A DNA stretch of 64,000 nt from Macrostomum lignano (taxonomy: Eukaryota), in assembly GCA_002269645.1 (NCBI GenBank), contig NIVC01000570.1, forward strand, positions 248,001 to 312,000, written 5' to 3'. Under the pieces are notes generated by a model. The model saw nothing but the letters and a program-made list of their open reading frames with translations. It was not told the DNA's origin and did no database searches. Numbering within the stretch: position 1 is the first letter of the stretch; the number at the start of each line of letters is the position of its first letter. This document shows positions 40,563 to 46,500 of the stretch, piece by piece. The position numbers and the translations under genes were made by a program.

Positions 40563-43500
40563 CTATGAGCAGAGTCTCTCTAACTTTGAGTCGGCACTGC
40601 CGGACTCCGCCAGAGAAGATGGTGGCGAATGTGGTGTCTCCTGGCAGGGCTTGGGCTGGGCCACTGGGGCCAGGGTTGGCGCCTGGTGGACTTGAATGAC
40701 GGCGGGCCTGCGGCCCTGCTGATGCTGCGGCGGTGGCGGCAGCGGCTCATCCGGCTGCTGTTCTGTCTGATGCTCCATCACTGATTGGTTCTCAGCAGCC
40801 TCAGCTGAGTACCCGGACACAAGCAGCAGCGGCAAATTCTGCTCATCTTCATCACCAGTTATTCCTATACGCGTTTTTAAGTAGTATGTTCAGCATTTTG
40901 TTACATGTTTTCCTAGAAAGCGTGAAACCGTAGATTGATCGGAAATCGCCTTCCTTTCTTAGAAATCTTTGTCCAGCGAATGCAAATTGGATGTCCAGAG
41001 CCATCCCAGCCGTCCCTTCTGCCCCGTTCCTCTCTGAGAGCTCTTAGAGCGCAATTGGAGCGAAGTGGCCTATTCATGCAGTAATAGAGAAGAATTTTTG
41101 AATATTTGCCTGGATTATGCACGCCTCGAGTAGCGGAACTGATGGTGAATAGGTGGCAGAATTAATGGAAATCTGCGCCTCTCCCACTGCTCACCTGTTG
41201 AGCTAATATGCGGGATATTTGGACAATAGGGGTGATTTCCCCATAAAACTTTGCCCCGGTCCTATTCTAAGCCAGAGACGTTCGCGAAAAGTACGTCTGC
41301 CAACACTGCCGGCTGCAGCACTTCACTGACCTTCGCGAAGGGCTAGCACCCTGAAGTTTTCATCGGACAGCCCTGCAAGTTTTGGGTGAGCAATTGCCTG
41401 TCTAATATTGGCTGGACTGGCATTGTTAGTTGGGCATCAGTAGAACGCGAGTTGAAACACACGAATTTTCATAAGCAGTGCGAGTCTTACTAAGTGGACT
41501 CAGTGACGAGTGCAGAGTCTCAAAGCCTGCAGGTAACGGTTGGTTCACTCAAGTTGTTACATTCTTTAATATTGGATAAAGATTTCGGATTTTTGGACTT
41601 CGAGCAGCTCAAACCATGTCAACTGCTGACTCTTAGTGCAGCAACAAAGACTCCCCCGAACACTCGGCCGGCAACTGCTCACCCAGCCTGTTGAGTTTCG
41701 CCTCCAGACCGCCGCCTCCGCCGCCGCCGCCGCCTCCGATGCCGCCACCACCGCCGCCACCGCCGTCGACTCCGCCAGCGCCGCCGGCGCCAGTCGCCGA
41801 TCCCTTCAACATCGGGTTGACTCGCCTCGGATTCGAGCTCGGAGACTTTGGCGGGCCGCTGCCGTTGCCGCCTGGGCCGCCGGGGCCGCCGGGAGGCGCG
41901 GGAGCCACCACGCCACCGCCGCCGGGCTTCGGCCGGACGGCCTCCACAGGGAGAACTCGGCGGCGCTTCTTTGGCAGCTTGCTGCGTGCCTGCGTGTGCG
42001 AGTAGAACATCGAGAAGTTCGACACGATGACGGGCACCGGCAGGGCGATCGTCAGCACGCCAGTGAGTGCGCACAGGGCGCCGACGAGCATACCTGCGGG
42101 AGACGGTGGCGTGTAAGTCGTATCGTCAGCGTCTGGTCACTTCTATGGTCAGCGTCTGGTCACTTCTATGGTCAGCGTCTGGTCACTTCTATGGTCAGCG
42201 TCTGGTCACTTCTATGGTCAGCGTCTGGTCACTTCTATGGTCAGCGTCTGGTCACTTCTATGGTCAGCGTCTGGTCACTTCTATGGTCAGCATCTGGTCA
42301 CTCTATAGTCAGTAGTAATATACCATACAAAATTGCCAGCAAATCGTTCTCATAATTCAATCAATTTAACTCTTTATCAGTGTGAAACGGCTCATTATCC
42401 CTTCATTATCGCTCGTCTTCACTCCGCTCAACTCGCTCCGCTCATCCTCGCTTCATTTCGGTCAATTGCACCATTTCACACTTACAACTATTAATTCTCA
42501 TTGAATTATGAGAATATGCTCTCGTCGTTCGCTTTGGTTTGCTGGCAATTTTGTATGGTATTCCAACACTTTCAACACTTCAAACACGCTGTAACCCCAG
42601 GCCGCGCCGCAGGCGCCAAGGGTCTTTTTCTGTTGCTAAAAATAGACAAAAATGACACATGTTACACATATACAAAATCTGAATGAAATACAAATTGGAG
42701 ACCCCGTAGAATAGGGTCTTTTTGATATGGTTGGTACAGCAGCAAATTTTGTAAAAGACAATATGGGTCTTATAGGACAAGCGGGCTCTGCAGCAGGTTC
42801 TATAACAAACGCTGTAAAGGGCGGAATCGAAGCAGCGAGGGTAGTAGAAGAGCTAAAGAAATTGAAAGAATTTAATGACACCCTCTCACAAATAAAAGCA
42901 ATAAAAGATTTGAAACTAGCACAGGAAGCAATCCAAGCCACACAACCAACAGAAACCCCCACGAAAAGCGCGCCAATAAGTAATAAAGATATTCAGGATT
43001 TTAATAAAATGTTAAACACAATTAAAGGTGGGAAAGGATTAAAGAAATTTTAACAATATAAAAATGGACTCATAAACATAGTCACACAATGTTAAAAAGA
43101 TTGGATCGCTTAGGCAAAAAACTTGACTACGATATCGATACATTTAAACTTGCTTCAAAATACGCACAAGAAGGAAGGCCAATATCCTTTAAGAACCGTG
43201 GTAAAAATTATCGGCTAACAGATTCTGATGTGAAATTTTTATTGAAGACTCACACTAAAAAGGACGGTGGATTGCGTATATTACCCCTTGCAACTTTGCT
43301 CCCAATAATTTTTGAAGGAATTGCCGCAGCCGGAGGAGTTGCTGGTGGAGCGGCAGGAGTTGCAAAAGCAGCAAATGACAAAAAAGCTGCGGATGAAAAA
43401 GCTAAAAGAGATGCCGAATTTCAAAGACAGCAAATAACGCAGGATGCTCAATTCAAACAGAAACTCATAGACACCATTAATATACCTTTTTACGTTCTAT

Positions 43501-46500
43501 TTGATAAAAAACTGCAACCAATTTGGCCACGGCTCAGCCTGACCATAGACATAGAATTTTCCATAGACAGCCACCGCTAGCGGCAACCAATTTGGTAAAA
43601 ACTGCGAGCTATTTTGCCAGCTTGAAGATAGCAGCTGCTCTGATGGCGAATCGTGGGCCGTACCAAAAGATAAGTCAGCTGGATCGAGAGCGAATCGTGA
43701 GAGCGTACAGGAGTGGCGACGACTGGGGAGAGCTTGGCAGAATGATGGGGATGAAGAAACCGACAGTGAGGAACATCGTGACCACGTATGAACGAACTGG
43801 TAGAGTTGGCACTCTGCCAAAAGGAGGAGTGAAGAGGATGGCGCTGACGGAGGCTATGGTGGACACCATTGTTCAATTCGAACGAGCACTTCATGGAATT
43901 TCTCTCTGAGATCGATGTTCTGATGGAAGAGGAGTTTGTGCTACTGTCCGATGGGGCTCGCGCTCACCTAGGTGTCCCTGGGATGTCTGAAGGTCATGCT
44001 CACCGATTCCTGCCTCCATACTCGCCGTTCATTAACCCGGCGGAGTACGCAGGCTCAGCGCTGAAGGCCAAGCTGAAAACGCAATTGCAATCACCTGCCA
44101 TTCAGCGCGAGGTGGCAGATACTGGACTGGCTGCTGCAGCAGGTGCGACACTGCATCAGCACAGGATGCGCATTCTGAAGAGAGAAGTGCAGCAAGCACT
44201 GAACTGCATCACGCCTCTCAAGTGCCTGCGCTGGATCAACCATTCCCAGACGTACTTCAATCGGTGCTTGAATGCTGAGGACATAATGTTCTGACTTCGT
44301 GCATGTATTGTTAACATTCTTTATCGTTATTGTTATGCTATTGAGCTGCTATCTTCAAGCTGGCAAAATAGCTCGCAGTTTTTACCAAATTGGTTGCCGC
44401 TAGCGGTGGCTGTCTATGGAAAATTGCTGCGGCTGCGTCAGGCTGAGCCGTGGCCAAATTGGTTGCAGTTTTTATCAAATAGAACGTAAAAAGGAATATA
44501 TAGTAGTTCAGCAACAGCAGAGCAAAAAAGAAATGCAGAAGCTAGGTTAGCAGCCGGAGAAGGTTTAATTTTAAAAGGAACAACCCAAGGAAGCGGAGTT
44601 GTCGCGGATAAACTACATGAGTTTGGGCAAACTTTAGAAAAAACGGGTGAGAAAGCTAAAGGATTTTTTGACAATATTGGAGCTAATTGTAGACCGGCTG
44701 TTCAGAAGATTTTTAATAAATTGGGAAAAGATTTTAACCCTTATGGGCAGCGGCCTACTGTTACCGAAAGCGGATCTCGAATAAATATTATATAAATTTT
44801 ATTCTATAAAATGGAACAAAGACTGACCCCAGATCAGATTCTACAACTTCTTGCAAACGAGCGCGAACAGTTCAATCGATTACAAAGACAGGTTGAACAA
44901 ATTGAACAGCGCCAAAGACAAAGACAAAGACAGAGAGCAATAGAAAGACAGAGAGCGAGAGAAAGAGAAAGAAAAAGACAAAAAGAAAGACAAATAGAAG
45001 ATCAGCAAATAAAAGAATTAGCAAATAATTTAAGGGCAGAATATGAAATGAAGCGTTTAATAGAAAAGGCTGAATATGAAAAAAGAATAGCAGAATTAGA
45101 AAAAAACCAAAAGAAACCCACACGTCGGAAACCGCGGAATAAATCGGATGCAAAAACCATTAAAAGAGTTTATTAGGGTTTATCGATTTGAACCAATGCA
45201 GAATGTCCTAGATTTTATTGAAACCCAACTTTCAAACGGAAATAGTGTTGAAATTACTAATGCGAGGGTACAATATTTTTATAACAACACCGGCGATGAT
45301 CGCGAAGAGATTAATCAATACTTAGCAACATTTTATAATATAAGTCAGTTTCTAAGTCAGTATATTACTACTATAGTCAGCGTCTGGTCACTTCTATGGT
45401 CAGCGTCTGGTCACTTCTATGGTCAGCGTCTGGTCACTTCTATGGTCAGCGTCTGGTCACTTCTACGGTCAGCGTCTGGTCACTTCTATGGTCAGCGTCT
45501 GGTCACTTCTATGGTCAGCGTCTGATCACTTCTATGGTCAGCATCTGGTCACTTCTATGGTCAGCATCTGGTCACTTCTATGGTCAGCATCTGGTCACTC
45601 TATGGTCAGCGTCTGGTCACTTCTATCGTCAGCATCTGGTCACTTCTATGGTCAGCGTCTGGTCACTTCTATGGTCAGCGTCTGGTCACTTCTATGGTCA
45701 GCGTCTGGTCACTTCTATGGTCAGCGTCTGGTCACTTCTATGGTCAGCGTCTGGTCACTTCTATGGTCAGCGTCTGGTCACTTCTATGGTCAGCGTCTGG
45801 TCACTTCTATGGTCAGCGTCTGGTCACTCTATGGTCAGCGTCTGATCACTTCTATGGTCAGCATCTGGTCACTTCTATGGTCAGCATCTGGTCACTTCTA
45901 TGGTCAGCATCTGGTCACTCTATAGTCAGCATCTGGTCACTCTATAGTCAGCATCTGGTCACTTCTATGGTCAGCGTCTGGTCACTTCTATGGTCAGCGT
46001 CTGGTCACTTCTATGGTCAGCGTCTGGTCACTCTATGGTCAGCGTCTGATCACTTCTATGGTCAGCATCTGGTCACTCTATAGTCAGCATCTGGTCACTC
46101 TATAGTCAGCATCTGGTCACTCTATAGTCAGCATCTGGTCACTTCTATAGTCAGCATCTGGTCACTCTATAGTCAGCATCTGGTCACTTCTATAGTCAGC
46201 ATCTGGTCACTCGATAGTCAGCGTCTGGTCTCTGCTTTTTATCACCCAGTCAACGGGTGAGATGATGATGAGGCAGCATAAATCGAGTCAGGGCGAGGCG
46301 ATGAGAAATGTCTTTTTGCACAGTCCCACTGGCCACCCCAGCAGGCGAGAGCAGCTGCAGCGCAATCCATAGTTTCGGGCTTGTATTTTCAGGAAGTAGA
46401 GGGCCCGAGTGCCGAGTTCCGCGCCTAGCAACCCGCTGTTTTATTTTTATCCTCCAGTCTCATGCAGCCGAGCAACTGACACCCAATGCCTGCCACTCAG

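Follow-up and report, generated by a model that had tools for sequence, protein, structure and literature searches.

A Polinton-derived insert, most likely a broken relic, in an intronic minisatellite of Macrostomum lignano

We analysed a 64,000-nucleotide stretch of the Macrostomum lignano genome (contig NIVC01000570.1, forward-strand positions 248,001 to 312,000; hereafter the window) and found that a 3062-bp insert at 42311-45372, embedded in a 22/23-bp minisatellite within a predicted channel gene, is almost certainly derived from a Polinton (Maverick). This origin, which had been proposed in a sequence-only reading made before any database search, is backed by homology to the Polinton polymerase pPolB, by the end motif and by a 6-bp target duplication. 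The insert is most likely an ordinary broken relic rather than a new kind of miniature element: we put at roughly 55% the probability that the element was full-length on integration and that break repair at this site afterwards removed about 10 kb or more of it. Positions are those of the window, and the features are collected in the table.

The ends of the insert are perfect 13-bp inverted repeats, opening with AGTAGT and closing with ACTACT. Thirteen matches at two fixed positions would arise by chance with a probability of 1.6e-8, and the terminal 13-mer had no further occurrence in the window. The hexamer ATAGTC stands on both sides. Since the 22-nt variant of the array unit found to the left of the insert recurs uninterrupted six times along the array (at 45906, 45928, 46064, 46086, 46108 and 46153), the right-hand ATAGTC is extra and not a product of repeat periodicity. 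The inverted ends and the unbroken variants thus confirm the 3062-bp insert and the true ATAGTC duplication first described from the sequence alone. Three symmetric parses are equally exact (a 6-bp duplication with 13-bp ends, 8 with 12, and 10 with 11) because the host sequence continues with AG; the 6-bp parse is preferred because it yields the (AGT)2//(ACT)2 end motif. The description of the insert as AT-rich held in relative terms, as its Polinton parts have 35-39% GC against 50% in the array and in a nested transposon, but the insert overall stands at 41%. No second copy of the insert was seen in the window.

The last 541 bp up to the right-hand junction correspond to the 5' end of a pPolB gene, and no catalytic domain is retained; the fragment speaks for the origin of the insert, not for a working polymerase gene. 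A 75-amino-acid (aa) open reading frame (ORF) at 45148-45372 retrieved one protein among 14 candidates, P0001 (93% identity, E 2e-32), which is a 988-aa PF03175 polymerase from the M. lignano gene model BOX15_Mlig030240g1 and sits in a cluster of 10 member sequences. By tblastn, residues 1-118 of P0001 aligned to 44811-45173 (78%, E 5e-34) and residues 108-174 to 45151-45351 (92.5%, E 2e-34). As these two matches lie in different frames, the right third of the element consists of the first 174 pPolB codons, frameshifted near 45147-45157 and cut at 45351. The element had earlier been held to lack pPolB; two of the "small ORFs" ascribed to it are in fact the frameshifted pieces of that gene. In P0001 a DGNC motif lies at residue 235 and is followed by exonuclease and polymerase motifs, but the protein ends about 55 aa past motif B without a YxDTD motif, so that the gene model is itself incomplete. 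Polinton pPolB has been described with the domain order TP-vOTU-exonuclease-palm (PMC11161782), and the cut probably falls inside the terminal-protein domain. A single-sequence fold of P0001 (mean pLDDT 36.9) was usable for the N-terminal helix at residues 7-92 only, and a PDB sequence search with P0001 returned nothing significant.

Eight bp separate the end of the pPolB match from the right terminus. The 9-mer of this junction filler repeats sequence 12 bp upstream. Of 1673 control positions tested within the element, 8 showed a local repeat of this kind, seven of them in its right-hand part, where the low-complexity beginning of pPolB also lies. The two ends agree over no more than 13 bp, made up of nine unpaired bases and four bases from the arm of the fold-back at the left end.

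Upstream of pPolB, the middle gene appears to belong to the adenovirus pX/mu-like core-protein family. Its 5' piece gave 85 protein matches at E<=0.001 (best 8e-26) among 1.84 billion representatives searched. Adeno_PX (PF05829) was detected at E<=0.01 in 16 of the 37 homologues scanned, mostly the top-ranked of 86, and one of these was over the curated cut-off. The window piece itself had no PF05829 match in the Pfam scan and nothing significant in a PDB sequence search, and its profile compared weakly with adenovirus PX 9lr9 (E 0.14). Among the Atlas clusters at 0.90-0.91, two carry PF05829 in 19-20% of their members and have Preplasmiviricota as the commonest recorded phylum, which is weak evidence because the recognition score was below threshold. 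Because the 3' piece beyond the nested transposon matches the C-terminal part of P0003, the two pieces are read as a single interrupted gene. This gene is broken again near 44735-44745, and a G-x-G C-terminal motif, present in 55 of the 86 relatives, follows in another frame at 44743-44784 (weak, E 0.005). Of the core-protein-like ORFs said to be kept, a pX-like gene is indeed present, but it is split by the transposon and damaged again near its 3' end.

A diglycine is invariant in all 34 aligned pX-like rows and may be a maturation-protease site. The same diglycine and hydrophobic, Gly/Ala-rich segment is found in adenovirus pX/mu (PF05829) and in PLA2X and GasderminX, the proteins in which adintoviruses have been described with pX-like domains (PMC8502044); unlike these last two, the window gene has no detected PLA2 or gasdermin domain. 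At least two diglycine-hydrophobic units per chain were observed in 6 of the 86 relatives (P0002, P0003, P0004, P0055, P0058 and P0083), which suggests that they are small polyproteins. The closest relatives, P0002-P0004, carry two units and the window gene one, which resembles unit 1 before the diglycine and unit 2 after it, where two extra residues sit.

The transposon that interrupts this gene is an element of about 1 kb with a helix-turn-helix (HTH) piece at 43643-43909 (HTH_SB 2e-7; HTH_28 over cut-off) and a partial DDE piece at 43848-44294 (DDE_3 8e-5), the middle of the transposase being missing. Like IS630-Tc1-mariner elements, it combines terminal inverted repeats, HTH, partial DDE and a TA-rich target; its exact limits are ambiguous, as TA, AT, ATAT and AATATA are all possible target duplications. 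Its inverted repeats and domain matches bear out the nested element, and the size of about 2 kb without it, that had been proposed from the letters; about 2040 bp are left after subtraction. A second internally deleted Tc1/IS630-type element of about 1.2 kb occurs at 6170-7399 (228-bp inverted repeats, 98%), whose ORF 6372-6887 (minus strand) encodes a transposase piece that shares 27% identity with its counterpart in the nested element (E 1e-10) and had no Pfam match by itself. Adjoining it is a 245-bp unit at 7473-7717 that resembles a miniature inverted-repeat transposable element (MITE) and has related ends (61-bp arms, 87%).

The left end carries a 242-bp fold-back of 24-bp perfect outer arms followed by imperfect arms with a 20-nt bulge. 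Its predicted folding energy is -45.95 kcal/mol (z -6.2), which was matched by none of 100 shuffles. An alternative parse gives a 236-bp TA-flanked unit, CC…GG, at 42323-42558, and the fold-back may be either a MITE insertion or a native terminal structure. It had no Rfam match and no other copy in the window. A Crypton origin was rejected on account of the inverted ends and the absence of an ORF, Cryptons having short terminal direct repeats, no inverted termini and a tyrosine recombinase (PMC3212892). ORF1, which follows, found no homologue among 12 candidates of a word-indexed protein search or in a PDB sequence search; its best Atlas score was 0.79, its only Pfam match DUF1690 at E 0.02, and its PHROGs matches had E>=0.096. 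A stop codon at 42712-42714 lies between this ORF and an in-frame ATG further upstream (42652). We would guess at a cupiennin-like or pVI-like role for the protein. Integrase, packaging ATPase, protease and major and minor capsid genes had no match among the element ORFs in Pfam and PHROGs.

Table. Coordinates of the insert, its parts and the flanking array in the window.
Feature	Positions	Strand	Remarks
Minisatellite, left part	42121-42310		22/23-bp unit; ends in left ATAGTC copy (42305-42310)
Left terminus	42311-42323	+	13-bp inverted repeat, starts (AGT)2
Fold-back, 242 bp	42320-42561		begins at element base 10
ORF1, 108 aa, Gly/Ala-rich N-terminus	42727-43053	+	orphan
Putative pX/mu-like gene, 5' piece	43089-43479	+	diglycine then hydrophobic, Gly/Ala-rich helix; interrupted by nested transposon
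Nested internally deleted Tc1/IS630-type transposon	43480-44499	+	~157-bp inverted repeats, 94%
Putative pX-like gene, 3' piece	44499-44795	+	53% over 73 aa to C-terminal part of P0003, E 2e-18
pPolB residues ~1-107, charged helical N-terminus	44811-45176	+	121-aa ORF matches P0001 N-terminus
pPolB residues 108-174, different frame	45151-45351	+	stops at 45351
Junction filler	45352-45361	+	9-mer 45353-45361 repeats 45341-45349; overlaps right terminus by 2 nt
Right terminus	45360-45372	-	13 bp, ends (ACT)2
Minisatellite, remainder, 38 units	45373-46230		begins with right ATAGTC copy (45373-45378)

With Polintons/Mavericks (adintoviruses), the insert shares (AGT)2//(ACT)2 ends, a 6-bp duplication, a pPolB N-terminus 78-93% identical and a pX-like family. 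Vertebrate Mavericks end in (AGT)2//(ACT)2, which is commonest, or (AG)3//(CT)3, with 6-bp duplications, and intact ones measure 12.7-24.6 kb with terminal repeats of 46-1447 bp (PMC8097293); the general ranges given for Polintons are 13-25 kb, repeats of 100-1500 bp and duplications of 5-8 bp (bioRxiv 2023.08.22.554363). Unlike intact Mavericks, the insert is 3 kb long, has a 13-bp terminal repeat and has its pPolB cut at residue 174; by repeat length, gene set and size it is a derivative rather than an intact member. Its frameshifts, insertions, large losses and short remnant are like those of degraded Maverick fossils: 96% of vertebrate loci are degraded, with no discernible terminal repeats in 2166 elements (PMC8097293), and Mayetiola Maverick consensuses are 600-4500 bp long (PMC8504770). 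The insert differs from many of the vertebrate fossils in that both exact termini and the duplication survive (PMC8097293). Like the polB-lacking polintons of Pieris, it has lost its polymerase, has a nested transposable element and keeps terminal repeats; however, those elements are at least 12 kb long and recur as related insertions, whereas the window insert was seen as one copy (bioRxiv 2025.02.07.637071). Scans of GTDB for the gene context of the relatives gave 0 of 601 pattern matches and 0 of 76, in a prokaryotic collection that is uninformative for an animal, and a plasmid search for this context found nothing.

The reading that we favour is that a full-length Polinton/Maverick from a family found in M. 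lignano entered the minisatellite, presumably through its own retrovirus-like integrase, and so would have produced the 6-bp duplication. A later deletion in place, arising from break repair, would have removed the whole stretch between a point within pPolB and the final 11-13 bp on the right. It could stem from abortive gap repair after excision, or from breakage at a fold-back within the right terminal repeat; the second cause is proposed because what survives of the right end reaches only to the position at which, on the left, the fold-back sets in. The short filler would be the repair scar, and the defective Tc1/IS630-type transposon and the small frameshifts may have been gained before or after the deletion. 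The residue would be an inactive left arm made up of the terminus, the orphan ORF, the damaged pX-like gene and the 5' fragment of pPolB, probably spliced out with the intron and with no evident function. We favour loss in place because the remnant is simply the part next to the left end, stops within a gene, bears a scar of the repair type and holds damaged genes. Starting at the left end, the genes follow one another head to tail, and nothing of the right arm is present; both identifiable genes are broken, and the copy is the only one in the window. A loss of at least 10 kb is suggested by the size of intact vertebrate elements. Abortive gap repair yields such lopsided derivatives in P and Ac elements. 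The filler, which copies adjacent sequence, resembles the templated inserts reported for 24% of the deletions that Tc1 excision leaves behind in C. elegans (PMC4490562).

Several points weigh against loss in place. A deletion of at least 10 kb that ends within the last 13 bp is unlikely unless its end point was somehow fixed, and that the right repeat carried a fold-back is an assumption rather than an observation. Polymerase-theta deletions in C. elegans are about 7-13 bp long and rarely exceed 5 kb (PMC4490562), and butterfly Polintons without polB still moved (bioRxiv 2025.02.07.637071). The data analysed held neither a full-length parent nor an empty allele or a sister copy, and the reference pPolB model, P0001, is itself without the YxDTD motif. 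In addition, the coincidence of the right end with the base of the fold-back would be explained more simply by copying back from the left end. The latter could have happened during extrachromosomal protein-primed replication, if synthesis from the left end broke off within pPolB and continued on a new template, the free tail at the foot of the fold-back, giving the 13-bp right end. Such a model needs the left end alone, as the 9-nt unpaired tail and the first 4 nt of the fold-back arm together make up the right-end sequence; the filler is consistent with template switching, and both exact termini and the duplication are intact. Retroviral-type integrases require only short end sequences. The standing model of Polinton replication has a single-stranded, end-paired intermediate (PMC4196379). 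However, copy-back genomes of Polintons were not found in the literature searched, the same features fit in-place repair, and nothing shows that integration came after the deletion. A defective Polinton genome of 2 kb made by copy-back, which had its right end rebuilt from the 13 bases below the left fold-back and was integrated (perhaps repeatedly) by a helper integrase, is a tentative proposal that we consider on balance improbable; its narrower form, a one-off integration of such a defective genome, seems unlikely.

The sequence-only reading had called the insert a non-autonomous derivative; taken as membership of a multi-copy family of about 2 kb, amplified in trans by the integrase and pPolB of full-length relatives, this we consider rather unlikely. 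The exact termini and duplication would suit it, as would a close pPolB relative in M. lignano in a cluster of 10 sequences, the report of mobile polintons without polB (bioRxiv 2025.02.07.637071) and the two internally deleted Tc1-type elements in the window. On the other hand, the window holds no second copy, the content is whatever adjoins the left end, cut off within a gene and broken at other points too, the right terminal repeat amounts to 13 bp, and the polB-less polintons reported are at least 12 kb long (bioRxiv 2025.02.07.637071). The lopsided anatomy, with its long left arm, 13-bp right end and repair-like filler, fits a deletion scar at least as well as a mobile non-autonomous element. 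It is very improbable that another DNA transposase, making an 8- or 10-bp duplication, inserted a captured Polinton fragment, or that the tandem array was mis-assembled. The longer parses are as exact as the 6-bp one and the site is a long near-perfect array; yet it is the 6-bp parse that yields the end motif commonest among Mavericks, the cargo is wholly of Polinton type, and mis-assembly would not produce inverted ends plus a duplication.

The host gene lies on the minus strand, with coding exons at about 61151-60870, 50714-50487, 50232-49820, 47750-47512 and 42093-41633, and the minisatellite spans 42121-46230 with the insert included. BTB_2 and Ion_trans Pfam matches in four of the five coding exons identify it as a predicted Kv-type channel gene. 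The insert is antisense in its coding intron 4, about 215 bp from the acceptor. Intron 4 of such a gene was correctly called earlier; the subfamily name Shaw goes beyond the Pfam evidence, which shows a Kv-type channel only. The first coding intron has an apparent GC donor (60869-60870, minus strand). Unrelated mini- and microsatellites crowd the whole window (Tandem Repeats Finder gave 79 rows), with at least one array in each intron of the channel gene. Downstream of this gene, in the opposite orientation, one long open frame at 34714-35661 (plus strand) has a CD20-like family match just over cut-off. A 29-bp sequence is common to 34031-34059 and 58935-58963, inverted and 25 kb apart, and is probably a dispersed repeat.

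The literature searched, with most subscription papers and Repbase outside its scope, gave only passing mentions or unrelated genome papers for a Macrostomum Polinton and no description of a 2-kb mobile Polinton derivative. The exact phrase non-autonomous Polinton/Maverick led only to the remark that Tlr1 is sometimes termed a non-autonomous polinton (PMC5499653), which is not proof of absence. The insert documents a Polinton family in Macrostomum with its end sequence, and gives the gene order of its left arm as orphan ORF, pX-like gene and pPolB. As a relic it is of limited importance. Degraded Polintons are frequent; more interest would attach to a 2-kb family mobilised in trans. Should the junction recur elsewhere, the insert would qualify as a miniature Polinton mobilised in trans and would set a limit on how much end sequence integration requires. 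If the copy-back reading is true, the insert would represent a natural satellite, MITE-like or defective-interfering in kind, that accompanies an animal Polinton, and about 13 bp would be enough as an integration end.

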